From contig JBBRAU010000002.1 in assembly GCA_038206475.1 (NCBI GenBank), positions 13,892 to 77,891 of the forward strand: 64,000 nucleotides of DNA, read 5' to 3'. The DNA is from Patescibacteria group bacterium. Its GTDB lineage: Bacteria; Patescibacteriota; UBA1384; JBBRAU01. The notes beneath the pieces were generated by a model. That model saw only the letters and a program-made list of their open reading frames with translations. It was not told where the DNA came from and did not search any database. Positions 151 to 51,500 of this stretch are shown here, one piece after another (positions within the stretch are counted from its first letter, which is position 1; each line of letters opens with the position of its first letter). The translations under genes were made by a program, and so were the position numbers.

Positions 151-180
151 TAAGAACCTCTCGCTACGCTCGAGAACCTT
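151..180 (+). repeat. Copy of recurring intergenic motif (half A: TAAGAACCTCTCGCTACGCTCGAGAACCTT) upstream of tRNA-Ala
   Basis: 26/30 identity to the sequence just 3' of the tuf stop (read on minus strand) and strong similarity to the one after the rpsN stop. Confidence 0.5.
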
Positions 181-237
181 GCAGACATGCTTCATCTCTC
201 AGTCCAGCCCCCATACTTCGCATGGTGTCTGAACTGA

Positions 238-313: not shown

Positions 314-395
314 TTGGCTAGTCATCTGACAAGATGGCTGGCCAATGGTTTATTAAAGGCTCGAACGACCAGCGAGCTTGCGAGCTGGAGTTGGG

Positions 396-414
396 TCACG
401 AGCGAAGCGAGTGG
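396..414 (+). repeat. Copy of recurring motif half B (TCACGAGCGAAGCGAGTGG)
   Basis: Matches TCACGAG-N-GTAGCGAGTG present in the tuf/rpsJ and rpsN/rpsH spacers. Confidence 0.35.
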
Positions 415-441
415 GGATACTCGGCGAACGCAGTGAGCCAA

Positions 442-464
442 GGGCCTGTCTCCTCAGGTCCACC
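442..464 (+). repeat. Truncated tRNA-Ala-like repeat (acceptor 5' strand fused to the 3' T-arm/acceptor end)
   Basis: GGGCCTGT + CTCCTCAGGTCCACC reproduces tRNA positions 238-245 and 298-312 with the internal 52 nt missing. Confidence 0.45.
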
Positions 465-563
465 TGTTGAAAGTAATTACTGTTTAGCCACACTACATAT
501 TAGAGAAATTATTGCCAGTCGCATGCGCGAAATGGACCAGGAGCAAGCGACTTAATGGTTTGA

Positions 564-1949: not shown

Positions 1950-2022
1950 TATGGGACAATTGGCGAAGTTGGCAACGTTCTCAAATGAAATGAGAGGTTA
2001 CTGCCAACTGAGCCACGAACCC
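1950..2022 (-). pseudogene. Degenerate tRNA-like element (tRNA 5' half plus anticodon arm with UCA anticodon; no T-arm or acceptor 3' strand)
   Basis: Reverse complement GGGTTCGTGGCTCAGTTGGCAG..TCTCA-TTTCATT-TGAGA resembles the 5' half of the adjacent tRNA-Ala; position 37 is a pyrimidine and no T-arm is detectable. Confidence 0.3.
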
Positions 2023-29504: not shown

Positions 29505-29523
29505 GGTATTCCTTAATTATTTA

Positions 29524-29574
29524 TCACGAGTGTAGCGAGTGAAGAGTCTCTGGAGCGTAGCGACATGGTACTTA
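29524..29574 (-). repeat. Recurring bipartite intergenic motif (copy between rpsN stop and rpsH start)
   Basis: Minus-sense TAAGTACCATGTCGCTACGCTCCAGAGACTCTTCACTCGCTACACTCGTGA; about 82% identical over ~50 nt to the tuf/rpsJ copy. Confidence 0.6.
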
Positions 29575-32021: not shown

Positions 32022-32052
32022 TGCTTATCTTTCCAATATATTCAGTTAATGC

Positions 32053-32100
32053 TTTTCACTCGCTTCGCCTGTTTATCGACAGACAGACTCGTGATGAACA
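32053..32100. repeat. Partial, inverted and interrupted copy of motif half B in the rpsC-rplP spacer
   Basis: Plus-strand TTTTCACTCGCT ...(27 nt)... CTCGTGAT. Confidence 0.3.
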
Positions 32101-32168
32101 TGAGAATAACCTTTGGTCTGTTTTGATCTTGTTTACTTTACTTGATTTTTGACTTTTCTTCAATGAGC

Positions 32169-36225: not shown

Positions 36226-36422
36226 GTGGTCTCCGGTTTCGGTTGCTCTCGGGTCTTCATCTTCAACCAATATTTGGTTGAAATGCAACTCATGCCTGCG
36301 CACGAGAAGTCAAGAACCGCACTCTTGCGGTTCCGTCCGTCTAGCTCAGCTGCCAAACGCTAAATAAGCGAGAGGCTCAGGCGCCTGGGCAGACACCATC
36401 GGCCTTGCTATCTCTACAGCTG

Positions 36423-36451
36423 ACCTTACCGAAAATATAGTCACACGTCAA
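36423..36451 (-). promoter_or_regulatory. Candidate sigma70-like promoter for the rplC operon
   Basis: Minus strand TTGACG - 17 nt - TAAGGT, about 190 nt upstream of the rplC start. Confidence 0.3.
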
Positions 36452-36525
36452 CTATCCTGCCATCACCGACCCGTCCGCTATTGATAATTATTTCGTCCCC
36501 GCTCTTGAACAAGGAGGCGTCGTCC

Positions 36526-36666
36526 ATGGCTGATCGAGTATGCATTAATGTTGGGAAGGGATACGCTCTTGAGCCAAACCAACTAACAGAGTACCGTGGC
36601 AAGAAAGCAGGACTTCCAACAGCAGAGCCGCTGAGACTCGCTGTGCTACTCTCTATTAATCAATAG
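36526..36666 (+). CDS. Small ORF (46 aa) antisense to the r-protein operon, unknown function
   Basis: AAGGAGG SD 8 nt before ATG 36526; followed by two hairpins; CTA/AGA/GGA codons atypical of neighbours. Confidence 0.3.
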   Translation: MADRVCINVGKGYALEPNQLTEYRGKKAGLPTAEPLRLAVLLSINQ

Positions 36667-36720
36667 AGCTGCCTCAAAGAGGAGATGCTGGCGCATCTCA
36701 TCACTCTGCCTCGTCCGACT

Positions 36721-36755
36721 AAAAGAGCCCCGACCACATGGCCGGGGCTCTTTTT
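36721..36755. terminator. Hairpin terminator between rpsJ and the antisense small ORF
   Basis: 8-bp stem GAGCCCCG/CGGGGCTC, T5 run on plus strand, U4 on minus. Confidence 0.6.
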
Positions 36756-36776
36756 ATGTCCTATTGAGAAGAAGAA

Positions 36777-37106: not shown

Positions 37107-37152
37107 GTGGTCTCCTTGGTACAAATCTCGTTGCTGATATTTGCTTTGACTG

Positions 37153-37202
37153 TCACGAACGTAGTGAGTGAAAAGGTTCTGGCGCGTAGCGACAGGTTCT
37201 TA
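37153..37202 (-). repeat. Recurring bipartite intergenic motif (copy between tuf stop and rpsJ start)
   Basis: Minus-sense TAAGAACCTGTCGCTACGCGCCAGAACCTTTTCACTCACTACGTTCGTGA; the TAA is the tuf stop codon. Confidence 0.6.
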
Positions 37203-38902: not shown

Positions 38903-38982
38903 TGCAGGCCTCCTTGGCCGCGAAATAAAAGGAACAGAGAGTGACTATTTAATTTATGCATTATTTAGTATACTTTGTCAAT

Positions 38983-39783
38983 ATGAAGTATCTCTGGCCG
39001 GCCGCTATCACCCTATGCCTACTGAGCCTATTTTTGTGGCTCCACACGTGGCAACGACCGGCAAACAGCATTGCAGCCTCACCGCAAGCCTCCAGCACTG
39101 CCTATTCGGCTCCACCGAACCCGCTGGCCAGCCTTTCAGCCTCCCCCGCTCTAGTAGACAGTCACACGCCTACGCGTATACCTAAGACGCGTCCAGCCAG
39201 CGTCAATATCAGCGTGCCATTTACTGTCCAGGCGCCAACTGGCCGTTGGGATGCCTTTCATGAGGAAACCTGTGAAGAAGCGGCGGCGCTGATGGCTGCC
39301 TATTGGCGCGACGCCAAATTGCACCGCAGCCTGGGTGACCCAGCCAAAATCCCCAACGATACGACCGAGACCGCTCTGCGCGCAATTGCCGATTGGGAGA
39401 CGCAAACGTTCGGCTATTGGCAAGATACGACGGCCACCGAAACAGCCGAAATTATAACCGATTATTTTCACCTGCAGGCGTCAGTAGAAACCATTGTCAG
39501 CACTGACACAATTGAACAGGCGCTGGCCGACGGCCATTTGGTACTGCTGCCGACCGCCGGCCGTCTACTAAATAGCCCCTACTACACGGCGCCGGGGCCG
39601 GCTTACCACTTTTTGCTCATCCGCGGTTATACCAACACCGACTTCATTACCAACGACGCCGGCACGAAGTACGGCGCAGGCTACCAATTTCGGAAAAAAA
39701 CCGTTCTGCAGGCCATTCACGACTGGACAGGAGACGCGGAAACCATTACAACTGGTCGTAGCGTCATGATTGTCGTGCAGTAG
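38983..39783 (+). CDS. Peptidase C39-like (YvpB-like) domain protein, N-terminal signal anchor
   Basis: Hydrophobic N-terminus, Ser/Pro/Ala linker, VPFTVQAPTGRWDAFHEETCEEAAALMAAYW resembling C39_2 catalytic Cys region; start ambiguous (38956 or 38983). Confidence 0.55.
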   Translation: MKYLWPAAITLCLLSLFLWLHTWQRPANSIAASPQASSTAYSAPPNPLASLSASPALVDSHTPTRIPKTRPASVNISVPFTVQAPTGRWDAFHEETCEEAAALMAAYWRDAKLHRSLGDPAKIPNDTTETALRAIADWETQTFGYWQDTTATETAEIITDYFHLQASVETIVSTDTIEQALADGHLVLLPTAGRLLNSPYYTAPGPAYHFLLIRGYTNTDFITNDAGTKYGAGYQFRKKTVLQAIHDWTGDAETITTGRSVMIVVQ

Positions 39784-48485: not shown

Positions 48486-48540
48486 ATATCTCCCTTTCGC
48501 TTAGCGAAAGCTTGCTTCATCGCGCAGCGAAAAGCTTTGC

Positions 48541-51500
48541 TTATTCCTTAGCCGAAACAACGGCCTTGTTACTTTTAGCTGGGGCTTCGTCATCAACCGG
48601 CTTCTCAGAACCTGGTTCGATATCCTCGGCCATGTCGTCAATTTCAGTGGTTAACTCATCAATAGTCTCTTCGGCTACATCATCTTCGTCCAACACACTC
48701 GGCTCGGCTTGCTGCGTCTCGGCCACAACCGCTCGGATCTTCTCAGCATGATGAACAGTTACGTCTGGAATTTCTTCCAGCTGCTCGCCCTTAGCCTCCA
48801 GGAGGTCAACCGACAGACCGAGTGATTGCAGCTCTTTGACTAACACATGGAACGACTCAGGGATGCTTGGCTTCTGAATTGGCTCGTCTTTAATAATTGA
48901 TTCGTAGGCACGAGAACGACCGACCACGTCATCAGACTTGATGGTTAACATCTCCTGAAGCATGTGGGCAGCACCGTAGGCCTCAAGCGCCCAGACCTCC
49001 ATTTCGCCCAAGCGCTGACCACCGAATTGAGCTTTGCCGCCGAGCGGTTGCTGGGTGATCATTGAGTACGGTCCAACCGAGCGGGCATGCACTTTGTCAT
49101 CAACCAAGTGATTAAGCTTCAACATGTAAATGATGCCGACCGTGACGTCGTGCTCATATGGTTGACCAGTTTTGCCGTCGTAGAGCACCGTCTTACCGGT
49201 TTCCGGCAAGTTTGCCTTCTTGAGCTCGGCGTAAATATCTTCAATTTTGGCGCCTTCAAACACAGGTGCCGCTACTTTGTAACCAAGCTTTTGGGCGGCC
49301 CAGCCAAGGTGCGTTTCAAAAATCTGGCCGAGGTTCATGCGCGAAACCACACCATGCGGGTTGAGCACAACGTCCAGGGGCCGGCCGTCGGGCAAGAACG
49401 GCATATCCTCCTCCGGCAAAATGGCAGCGATAACGCCTTTGTTACCGTGGCGGCCAGCCAACTTATCGCCGACTGAGACTTTGCGCAGTTGAGCCACCGA
49501 CACTTCAACCATCTGGAAAACGCCGGTTGGAAGTTCATCACCCTTTGATTTTTCGAACAATTTAATTTCGACAATTTTACCACGTTCACCGTGCGGCAAA
49601 CGAAGCGAGGAGTCACGAACGTCCTTAGCTTTCTCACCAAAGATGGCGCGCAGCAGGCGCTCTTCAGCCGAAGGCTCCGTCTCACCTTTTGGCGAGATTT
49701 TGCCAACCAGGATATCGCCCGGGCCAACTTCAGCGCCAATTTGGACGACGCCCTCTTCATCTAAATTCGACAACGCTTCTTCACCGACGTTCGGAATATC
49801 GCGCGTAATCTGCTCTGGGCCAAGTTTGGTGTCGCGCACTTCCATGGAATATTTTTCAATATGGATCGAGGTAAAGCGGTCTTCTTTCACCAAACGCTCA
49901 GACAGAATAACACCGTCTTCGTAGTTGTAGCCGCCCCAAGACAAGAAGCCGCACAGCAGATTTTGACCCAGCGCCAGCTCGCCCTCTTCGGTAGCGTTTG
50001 AGTCAACGATAACCTGACCGGCTTTGACAGACTGGCCGACACTAACAATTGGTCGCTGGTTTAAGGAGGTGGCCTGATTAGAGCGGACGAATTTATCTAA
50101 TTGATAGGTGTACTCTTTTTTATCACTGCCAAGCAGAGTAATGCTGTCGCCGCCGACTTTGCTGATTGTACCGTCAATCTCAGCGGTTATCAGCTGACCA
50201 GAGTCCAAGGCGGCCGGGCCTTCAATGCCGGTGCCAACTACCGGCGATTGCGGCCGAATAACCGGCACCGCCTGGCGCATCATTGACGAGCCCATCGAGG
50301 AGCGGGCAGCGGCATCGTGCTCGATAAACGGAATTAGCGCCGTGGTGATGGCCACAGTTTGCATCGGCGAAACGTCCATGTACTGAACATGTTTGCGGTC
50401 TGCCATCCCTGGCTCGCCATAACGGCGGACGACCAAGCGGCGGTCAGTCAGAAAACCTTGAGCGTCAACCGGCGCGGAAGCCGGGGCAATGATAGCCCGT
50501 TCTTCGTCGGCGGCGTCCAGGTAAATCATTTCATCAATTACTTTAACTTTTCCATTCTCTTGGATGACTTTGCGGTACGGCGTTTCAATGAAACCATAGT
50601 CATTGATGCGACCATAGCTCGCCAAATAACCAACCAAACCGATGTTTGGGCCTTCTGGCGTTTCAATTGGGCATATGCGGCCGTAGTGACTGGCATGTAC
50701 ATCACGGACTTCGAAGCCGGCACGTTCACGGGTTAAGCCGCCCGGGCCGGTGGCTGACAGGGTGCGCTTGTGCTCAAGCTCAGCGATGGGGTTAATTTGG
50801 TTCATAAACTGCGACAACTGTGAGGAGGCGAAGAACTCTTGCAGCACAGCCACAATTGGCCGTGAGTTAATCAGTTGTTGCGGCGCCACCGTCGCCAGGT
50901 CGCAGACGGCCATGCGGTCACGGGCGATCCTCTCCAAGCGCAGCAAACCGACCCGCACTTTGTTTTGCACCAGCTCTCCAACGGTACGGATGCGGCGATT
51001 CTTCAGCGAGTCCATGTCGTCGGCTTTGGCGTTTGGATTGTTGTTCAGGCGGATAATTTCTTTAATAATCTCGATCAAATCTTCGCGGCGCAGAACGCGG
51101 TGTTCCGGCATGTTTGGCACGTCCAGCAGCAGGCGCTGGTTGAGTTTGTAGCGGCCAACACGGCCAATGTCGTAGCGTTTCGGGTTGAAAAACAGCGCAT
51201 CCAAAAAGACTTTGGCCGACTCCGGGGTGGCCAAATCGCCCGGTCGAATGCGCTTGTAGACCTCCACTAAAGCTTCGCGCTCGTCTTTGGCCGGGTCTTT
51301 GGCTAGAGTGGCCTTTAGGTACTGGTGGTCTGGGTTATTGTCGACGTCAGCAAACAGCCCGATGATCTCTTCGTCAGTGCTGTAGCCAAACGCCCTGAGC
51401 AGCGTACTAATAGTGACACGACGTTTGCGGTCAACTTTGACCGAGATGATGTCCTTGGAAGAAGTTTCGATTTCCAGCCACGCTCCACGGGAAGGAATGA

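Follow-up and report, generated by a model that had tools for sequence, protein, structure and literature searches.

A probable interspersed hairpin repeat of CPR bacteria at the tuf-rpsJ and rpsN-rpsH junctions

The window, that is, the whole 64 kb stretch of DNA analysed here, represents a ribosomal-protein, rpoBC and tuf region in which the gene for S5 is followed by an ORF without a Pfam match and then by that for SecY, no L30 gene having been called. Its named S10 and SecY homologues are assigned to 'Patescibacteria group' and Ca. Berkelbacteria. Since the named SecY matches (Berkelbacteria) show only about 50% identity to the window protein, and closer relatives 57-68%, this lineage is sparsely sampled.

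On the minus strand, TAAGAACCTGTCGCTACGCGCCAGAACC and then TTTTCACTCACTACGTTCGTGA come after the tuf stop codon (37151-37202); this is the two-part sequence described by the original prediction. It was said to recur after the rpsN stop, where it is indeed present (29524-29574, minus strand; 83% over 42 nt), and its first half was reported upstream of tRNA-Ala, where it lies at 151-181 of the plus strand. An unbiased repeat search paired 37153-37194 with 29524-29565 (83% identity, 42 nt, ungapped; family D13). The 64 kb contain two full copies composed of halves A and B, in the tuf-rpsJ (37151-37202) and rpsN-rpsH (29524-29574) spacers; half A occurs again at 151-178/181 (plus strand) with 3 mismatches, and tRNA-Ala(CGC) (238-313) begins 57 nt downstream. 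The exact 9-mer TCGCTACGC has three occurrences in 64 kb, every one within a copy of the motif. The pattern TAAGNACC N0-1 TNTCGCTACGCNCNAGA, with 21 specified bases, fits all three copies and is expected 0.00 times (100 shuffles), in agreement with the claim that the recurrence is not due to chance. The motif is also bipartite and non-coding, as proposed. A coding reading was rejected, since a 1-nt indel between copies 1 and 2 breaks the frame and, by reading, substitutions are not enriched at synonymous positions. The copies, their parts and possible relatives are located as follows:

37151-37202, minus strand: copy 1, full A+B, beginning with the tuf stop TAA (37200-37202)
37195-37202, minus strand: box 1 of copy 1, TAAGAACC
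37179-37195, minus strand: hairpin A of copy 1, CUGUCGC-UAC-GCGCCAG, -5.6 kcal/mol
37172-37180, minus strand: box 2 of copy 1, AGAACCTTT
37154-37170, minus strand: hairpin B of copy 1, CAC-UCACUACGUUC-GUG, -2.3 kcal/mol
37141-37199: 59-nt block at copy 1 that is extra relative to locus L083
29516-29574, minus strand: copy 2, full A+B and more degenerate, beginning with the rpsN stop TAA (29572-29574)
29567-29574, minus strand: box 1 of copy 2, TAAGTACC
29555-29563, minus strand: core 1 of copy 2, TCGCTACGC
29542-29550, minus strand: box 2 of copy 2, GAGACTCTT
29525-29541, minus strand: hairpin B of copy 2, CAC-UCGCUACACUC-GUG, -2.0 kcal/mol
29521-29523, minus strand: trailing TAA of copy 2
29512-29515, minus strand: second TAAG of copy 2, overlapping the rpsH Shine-Dalgarno
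151-181, plus strand: copy 3, core module only, TAAGAACC-TCTCGCTACGCTCGA-GAACCTTG (box, hairpin A, box)
1973-2000, minus strand: probable diverged module, TAACC-T-CTCA-TTTCATT-TGAG-A-GAACGTTG, marginal
395-422, minus strand: reverse-oriented candidate for a degenerate unit of half-B type, CCAC-TCGCTTCGCTC-GTGA, downstream of tRNA-Ala(CGC)
32051-32085, plus strand: candidate for a degenerate unit of half-B type, in antisense to the operon, weak (nhmmer E=0.93)
48486-48543, minus strand: possible relative of the second module type, beginning at the rpoB stop codon

Half B forms another hairpin of the half-A kind, its degenerate core (TCACTACGT in copy 1, TCGCTACAC in copy 2) lying 25 nt past the first core. 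Copy 3 is the commonest metagenome variant save for one compensatory pair, C...G in place of T...A (family HMM E=1.6e-12; covariance model 45.7 bits, E=1.6e-13; hairpin A -4.3 kcal/mol). Copy 1 is recognised by the family HMM with E=4.9e-8 and by the covariance model with 41.4 bits, a score to be read in the light of its presence in that model's training set. Copy 2 gives an HMM E-value of 0.04 and no match to the covariance model; its boxes are degenerate, its hairpin A is at -1.1 kcal/mol, and it looks as if it is decaying. The direct repeat GAACC...AGAACC, 20 nt apart, to which attention had been drawn, holds in copies 1 and 3 and is degenerate in copy 2 (GTACC...GAGAC).

The remaining candidates are less secure. 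The module at 1973-2000 lies in sense orientation 28 nt upstream of tRNA-Ala(GGC) (1945→1870) and scores 12.2 bits (E of about 0.07) with the covariance model, with a hairpin of -5.0 kcal/mol. The weak unit at 395-422 (nhmmer E=0.54) has one mismatch in its core and complementary arms, CCAC/GTGA. A pairing of 157-173 with 398-414 around tRNA-Ala (14/17 bp by eye) was discarded, being unused in the MFE fold of 100-480. The rpsC-rplP spacer (32022-32168), in which the 32051-32085 unit is situated, is unusually long at 147 nt. The element at the rpoB stop reads TAAGCAAAGCTT, TTCGC-TGC-GCGA, TGAAGCAAGCTT, TCGC-TAA-GCGA, AAGGGAG, and contains two perfect 4-5-bp hairpins 23 nt apart (-4.1 and -8.1 kcal/mol); its AAGCAAAGCTT recurs in the L105, L106 and L129 arrays, a possible likeness seen on reading.

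The JGI metagenomes were searched with the half-A pattern (21 specified bases), which gave 62 exact matches on 49 contigs, against about one due to chance by our estimate. They take the form TAAGAACCT[T/C/G]TCGCTACGCTC[A/G/C]AGAACCTTG with hardly any further variation, on contigs of 31-54% GC; among the hosts, Ca. Nealsonbacteria (L087, L100) and candidate division WWE3 (L098) could be named. The same pattern gave 0 matches in viral contigs. Because a strict pattern across the A/B junction gave 0 matches in the JGI metagenomes, the exact A+B junction of the window copies is lineage-specific. Scans with profile models, which had been recommended, were also run. The family HMM found nothing significant in the close relatives or in 1.25 Mb of unrelated control loci (80 loci from a scan for relatives by ribosomal protein L4, which was swamped by a generic peptide pattern, best match 45% identity); covariance model R1 gave no matches in the close relatives or in three further loci from Patescibacteria. 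Within the element-bearing loci (329 kb) R1 recognised 149 modules, the densest contigs having about 25 in 12.7 kb (L133) and about 17 in 9.9 kb (L104); in the window it recognised copies 3 and 1 together with the marginal module at 1973-2000 (minus strand).

These loci define a family grammar: TAAGAACC, then T[stem-loop-stem]A, then GAACCTTG, usually a second hairpin, and finally TAA. The core module of about 31 nt consists of the box TAAGAACC, a small hairpin closed by T...A with a free stem sequence, and the box (A)GAACCTTG. Many copies, both full window copies among them, add the second hairpin, with a TCGCTACGCTC-type core, and end at TAA. The canonical 50-nt unit, TAAGAACCTT, TCGCTACGCTC, AAGAACCTTG, TTTC-TCGCTACGCTC-GAAA, corresponds exactly to halves A and B as first described.

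Copies stand alone or follow one another head to tail in arrays whose period is 39, 50-51 or 65 nt. Five units with a 51-nt period are present in L087, six units in L100 and at least three, with a 50-nt period, in L114 and L119; L104 and L112 have a 39-nt period and L134 one of 65 nt. The copy number varies, L096 having 2 units as against at least 3 in the otherwise identical L114 and L119. The family is dispersed between the genes of several CPR classes, in either orientation, as single copies or head-to-tail arrays of variable copy number.

Arrays of this appearance in CPR bacteria invite comparison with guide-RNA systems. In CPR TIGR-Tas stem-loop arrays, variable palindromes are combined with CUU/UG boxes, each unit having two variable 8-12-nt spacers, a box C (CCA or CUU) and a box D (UG) (PMC12045711; 10.64898/2026.09.09.750476). 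The repeat shares with them the hosts, arrays of units with short conserved boxes, variable palindromic stems and a CUU at the stem base, and its 39-nt arrays can be parsed, in our reading, as 10-11-nt repeats split by 9-nt segments. Nevertheless, the segments between hairpins are invariant across genomes rather than variable spacers, there is no in-register UG box D (UC or UA, never UG, stands 9 nt past each CUU), and the hairpins are local, with 3-6-nt loops. Furthermore, units inside an array are often identical, single copies are scattered at many loci per contig among housekeeping genes, and the flanking ORFs gave no Nop or Tas match with Pfam, which may miss divergent Tas proteins. An array of the TIGR-Tas or CRISPR type is accordingly regarded as extremely unlikely. 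A CRISPR array was rejected since whole units, the 'spacer' part included, are identical within the L087, L100 and L134 arrays.

The existence of the hairpin deserves further attention, as the original prediction had found no convincing one. Single-copy folding agrees with this as far as the window is concerned, none of its copies beating shuffles (z = -0.1, +0.6), and the hairpin can consequently be demonstrated only by comparison within the family, which supports it strongly. The commonest variant, which is that of the window, forms a hairpin that is imperfect, a U·C/C·U internal mismatch being conserved in it, and is therefore missed by single-sequence folding. Hairpin energies range from -5.6 to -1.1 kcal/mol in the window copies and reach about -10 kcal/mol in other members of the family.

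Covariation was apparent already at the two free pairing positions of the search pattern, which in 52 copies of distinct context read T-A (33), C-G (8), G-C (3) and C·A (8) and nothing else. Independently of this pattern, all GAACC-N(5-28)-GAA[CT]CTT segments were collected, giving 40 distinct interiors, nearly all closed by T...A. Most of these are small perfect palindromes unrelated to one another in sequence, for example TCGCTTTCAGCGA, TCAGGATTACCTGA, TGGCTACGCCA, TGCCCTTTGGGCA, TCTCCGACTTACATCGGAGA and CCCGGTAAGACCGGG. Alignment A1 comprised 35 modules chosen by their flanking boxes alone, with a 7-pair stem; three segments which spanned the junction of neighbouring units and contained no hairpin module were dropped before counting. 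Of its stem cells, 81.9% were paired (shuffles 59.9±2.2%) and 55 showed two-sided changes (shuffles 21±3.6), with a covariation score of 0.449 (shuffles 0.136); in each case 0/500 shuffles reached the observed value. Registers of the stem slid by 1-3 columns had only 29-47% of cells paired. The stem is kept by compensatory changes across the family. The second hairpin showed at least 3 consecutive complementary flanking pairs in 15/27 core units outside half A, as against 4.4±1.6 in shuffles, with arms as different as TTTC/GAAA, ATTT/AAAT, ATTC/GGAT, TTTT/AAAA, TCAC/GTGA and CCAC/GTGA.

The boxes are conserved in sequence and the stem as a structure only, which points to a trans-acting factor that reads a folded single strand (DNA or RNA) together with the GAACC boxes. 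A protein binding DNA in tandem, as the direct repeat had suggested, is conceivable, yet it would not account for complementary stems of unrelated sequence. The 31-mer is almost identical between CPR classes whose SecY proteins are <50% identical, which would fit either strong constraint by a putative conserved factor or horizontal spread.

The 65 half-A copies are mostly intergenic, and their orientation relative to the flanking genes is mixed (same/same 11, opposite/opposite 10, with both mixed classes present); about 22 copies run in the direction of the upstream gene and about 17 against it. Copies occupy 27/233 tandem, 8/46 convergent and 3/42 divergent spacers, a mild preference towards 3' ends. 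The ORFs flanking arrays encode L31, RF1, RbfA, L13, MurB, PlsY, FtsK, HPF and NUDIX proteins (Pfam), and no recurrent protein family was found close to the elements. In 9/44 independent copies the TAA of the motif closes a frame of 50 codons or more, compared with 6.8% of all TAA triplets, so that it serves as the stop codon of the upstream gene above the background rate; examples are tuf and rpsN in the window, L31 in L108 and L6 in L111.

Two of the elements, copy 3 and the module at 1973-2000, precede tRNA genes, and a weak sigma-70-like match (TTCACT, 16 nt, AATAAT) coincides in part with copy 2, which might indicate a promoter or an intrinsic terminator. Against this, the promoter-like hexamers differ between copies and only about 4-5 of some 40 distinct loci (~10%) have a tRNA within 150 nt, roughly the chance value for intergenic positions; a tRNA association of the family was rejected on these grounds. 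A terminator was rejected likewise, as no T-run follows the hairpins, the orientation is mixed and the rpsJ terminator is located away from the motif, at 36720-36755. The probability of either function is very small.

The orthologous spacers of relatives were then compared. The tuf-rpsJ spacer measures 93 nt in the window, 33 nt in L083 (S10 90% identical, the closest) and 23 nt in L084 (S10 84%). That of L083, TAAttatcagttaaacgttttgcaccaaggagaataATG, matches just the 3' part of the window spacer (atatcagcaacgagatttgtaccaaggagaccacGTG); MAFFT places the gap elsewhere than 37141-37199, the robust point being the difference in length. In L085 (S10 82%) the spacer has an unrelated sequence with a small called ORF. 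The rpsN-rpsH spacer measures 67 nt in the window, 7 nt in L135-137 (S8 64%) and 9 nt in L139 (SecY 68%). L139 and L083 come from the same sample. Minus the block, the window junction would read TGG-TAA-GGAATACC-ATG (a junction reading), in which the rpsN stop would overlap the Shine-Dalgarno as in the TAG-GAGCGCC...ATG of the relatives. The 59-nt block at this site is bordered by TAAG on both sides; at the right junction of copy 1, AAA stands in place of the TAA that a duplication would have left. Both full window copies are 59-nt blocks missing from the orthologous spacers of the nearest relatives. Since the relatives with empty sites are distant (S10 84-90%, S8 64%, SecY 68%), a loss in these rather than a gain in the window is possible. 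In the nearest relatives and in another CPR lineage this ribosomal-protein operon carries its modules in different spacers: L139 has GAACC-A-CGCGCC-TGT-GGCGC-A-GAACC at L6-L18, and L111, of the other lineage, has modules in the L14-L24 spacer and at the L6 stop codon (L6-L18).

These results bear directly on the functions first suggested for the motif, namely an operon-specific regulator site, a processing signal or a translational-coupling element, and on the absence of conservation at orthologous spacers that had been named as counterevidence. Such conservation is lacking at both junctions in the closest relatives, and the operon-specific reading is therefore not supported. A cis-regulator of rpsJ and rpsH, whether tandem operator, RNA leader or coupling element, would fit the location between a stop codon and the next Shine-Dalgarno at two ribosomal-protein junctions, and direct GAACC repeats two helical turns apart. 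It is largely refuted by the empty junctions; the same sequence also stands beside unrelated genes in both orientations and in dozens of other genomes, multi-copy arrays exist, and Rfam offers no match, leaving it very improbable. The earlier impression that this is not a known ribosomal-protein leader was confirmed, Rfam at the gathering threshold finding only the two tRNAs in the window; five array loci searched at E up to 1 gave tRNAs and sub-threshold noise only.

A function for the host independent of any particular operon is harder to dismiss. The GAACC boxes and hairpin could be bound or cleaved by a conserved CPR protein or RNP, acting for instance as a single-stranded-DNA site or as a signal for RNA processing or stability, and be retained by selection wherever they landed; this overlaps with the reading as a dispersed repeat, and the two are not mutually exclusive. 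In its favour are boxes that are almost invariant in several CPR classes with hosts of 31-54% GC, the covarying stem, a compensatory change of T-A to C-G at what is apparently one orthologous site in the related contigs L092, L094, L109 and L125, and sense copies placed exactly at stop codons in the ribosomal-protein operons of three lineages. The mixed orientation to transcription (about 22 same versus 17 opposite), the orthologous spacers of relatives without the motif, the lack of a consistent gene association and the weak or degenerate hairpins of the window speak against it, and we entertain it only tentatively.

The interpretation which we consider probable is that the motif is a copy of a short, modular, hairpin-forming interspersed repeat of CPR bacteria, similar in behaviour to REP/BIME or BOX elements. 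New copies would be inserted at or beside TAA, perhaps with duplication of TAA or TAAG as at rpsN-rpsH, and arrays would expand and contract through slippage or unequal recombination. Insertion would probably be catalysed in trans by a putative enzyme reading the single-stranded hairpin and the flanking GAACC boxes. The window copies are presumably co-transcribed with tuf-rpsJ and the spc operon and would put weak hairpins right after a stop codon, the downstream Shine-Dalgarno being left intact. They probably have little local effect, no more than a modest one on the 3' stability of the upstream mRNA or on translational coupling.

REP and BIME sequences of proteobacteria are repetitive extragenic palindromes mobilised by RAYT Y1-HUH transposases. 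The CPR repeat resembles them in being a short (20-40 nt) imperfect intergenic hairpin, single or clustered and in both orientations, often just past stop codons, with a fast turnover between relatives and a short conserved flank next to a structurally maintained stem. It differs in several respects. The REP flank is a 5' GTAG, whereas here two direct GAACC boxes surround the hairpin, and CTAC is found only in the loop of the commonest variant and is missing from many others. Clusters are head-to-tail, in contrast to the alternating inverted pairs of BIMEs and REPINs, and the sequence hardly varies between CPR classes, REPs being species-specific. Finally, REPs have a RAYT, and no RAYT gene is present among the approximately 30 window and 10 array-flanking ORFs. 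A Pfam search of these ORFs yielded housekeeping families only, with no match to Y1_Tnp, and disclosed no mobilising enzyme (transposase, integrase, Nop domain). The gene lying between two oppositely oriented copies in L101 resembles, on sequence reading, a long coiled-coil protein of the membrane-fusion type and not a transposase.

The BOX elements of Streptococcus pneumoniae have the structure boxA-boxB(n)-boxC, and ERIC, Correia/CREE and RUP are similar modular repeats. Common to these and the CPR repeat are the modular build, an internal module amplified in tandem, an intergenic location, hairpin potential and the absence of coding capacity. There is no sequence similarity, however, and the CPR units are much smaller (31-50 nt) and occur in another phylum with genomes of about 1 Mb. 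Correia and RUP elements also carry terminal inverted repeats, which the CPR repeat does not, its ends GAACCTTTCGC... and ...GCTCGAAA not being reverse complements past TTTCG (by reading).

MITEs derived from IS5/IS630-type insertion sequences duplicate a TA or TAA target. In the CPR repeat TAA is frequent at both ends, the 59-nt block of copy 2 is flanked by TAAG...TAAG and presence differs between relatives; yet the repeat is without terminal inverted repeats and far shorter, and no insertion sequence of full length related to it came to light. The TAAG...TAAG is clear at copy 2 only; most full elements are followed by TAA, which could also be the first bases of a truncated next unit. The signs of a target duplication of TAA or TAAG are suggestive only.

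A stronger claim would be that the GAACC-box hairpin is the recognition site of a trans-acting system common to the CPR classes, either a hairpin-reading recombinase or HUH mobiliser or an RNA-binding or processing machinery. This is possible, though on balance unlikely. If it were true, the near-identity of the 31-mer in hosts with <50% SecY identity would reflect strong functional constraint or ongoing horizontal spread among episymbionts, and the element would represent a new class of mobile or regulatory element and not a REP look-alike. The 31-nt core, nearly unchanged across CPR classes, points to a putative conserved partner, be it an enzyme or a binding factor, and the search for it is made concrete by the covariance model, which can be run on complete CPR genomes and its matches related to their gene content.

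In the full-text literature two of the motif strings turned up in unrelated papers only, there was no occurrence of the 11-mer core or of GAACCTTTCGC, and no repeat element of this type from CPR bacteria was met with. A family of hairpin repeats of about 30-55 nt spread across many tiny CPR bacteria has apparently not been described before. CPR or Patescibacteria genomes, of about 1 Mb, are highly streamlined and are usually called poor in repeats and mobile DNA. A repeat that fills the spacers of some lineages, locally at about 2 per kb, contradicts this picture, and it reaches even ribosomal-protein, tuf and possibly rpoBC junctions. Such repeats explain oddly long spacers in CPR operons; they can also generate spurious ORFs (for example RTFRYAQEP... 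repeats) and could be misread as CRISPR or TIGR-like arrays.

The rpsJ gene ends in a clean intrinsic terminator at about 36720–36755 (−), AAAAAGAGCCCCGGCC...GGTCGGGGCTCTTTT, and is followed by a gap of approximately 470 nt without a convincing ORF up to rplC (region 36304–36776 (−)). In the relatives L083–L085 tuf is followed by rpsJ, which is without any linkage to rplC. Since a terminator and a long gap separate the two genes in the window and the link is missing from these relatives, tuf-rpsJ seems to form a transcription unit of its own in the window lineage, apart from the remaining S10 operon. The window (38956–39783 (+)) and L084 (573–1358), the 84% relative, each have a Peptidase_C39-like gene upstream of tuf and on the strand opposite to it; in the window this gene stands between fusA and tuf. 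This neighbourhood is conserved in both and is unusual for the str operon.

Four related, diverged contigs (L092, L094, L109 and L125) have kept the GAACC element at apparently one orthologous site; between them a C-G pair of hairpin A is exchanged for T-A, a compensatory change. At this site the element sits between the inverted flanks ACTACAGCACTA ... TAGTGCTGTAGT plus TTTT, that is, within the loop of a terminator-like hairpin.

In the arrays of the metagenome contigs L104, L105, L112, L117 and L091/L106/L129 the GAACC modules alternate with modules of another type, TAAGC-ATA-GCTTGACGGAAGA. Variable 8–11-mers rich in purines serve as linkers between CTTG and TAAG (ATGGGAGA, GCGGGAGGA and ATGAAAGAA) and are Shine-Dalgarno-like in sequence. 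Arrays also give rise to long spurious ORFs, for example through repeated RTFRFAQEPCFSLTFEI, which gene callers could label as repeat proteins:

L100, 3186–3578: array-derived spurious ORF region
L104, 5403–5678: array-derived spurious ORF region
L121, 6264 onwards: array-derived spurious ORF region
L087, 1589–2194: array-derived spurious ORF region

An unusually long spacer separates rpsC from rplP: 147 nt in the window and 112 and 198 nt in relatives. The regions concerned, including those of the L139 repeat described below, are:

Window, 32022–32168: spacer
L139, 1515–1626 and 5060–5303: spacers in a relative
L135, 479–676: spacer in a relative

The S3→L16 and L6→L18 spacers of L139 have another repeat of about 50 nt in common, GGACTGGGTCCYTCG...CCTGCRG...TCGYTTC.CTC.GGAT, with a TCGCTTCGCTC-like core inside. 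This second repeat family may be kin to that of the GAACC module.

Two tRNA genes have further features nearby. Directly 3' of tRNA-Ala(CGC) lies a strong hairpin (window 314–350 (+), TTGGCTAGTCATCT...AGATGGCTGGCCAA), and the same strand carries:

443–465 (+): acceptor-strand fusion, GGGCCTGT|CTCCTCAGGTCCACC

Here the 5' acceptor strand of tRNA-Ala(CGC) is joined to the last 15 nt of that tRNA. The segment would form an Ala acceptor-stem minihelix with G3·U70 kept and an ACC end, and could be what a deletion left of a second tRNA-Ala, or else a duplication of att-like kind. Positions 2001–2022 (−), GGGTTCGTGGCTCAGTTGGCAG, directly upstream of the diverged repeat module, are similar to the neighbouring tRNA-Ala(GGC) in its 5' acceptor and D-arm, GGGCCCTTGGCTCAGTTGGTAG. 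Likewise, an element in contig L097 is flanked by a duplicated stretch of 18 nt from the 3' end of a tRNA. Together, 2001–2022 and L097 suggest rearrangements near tRNA genes involving the repeats.
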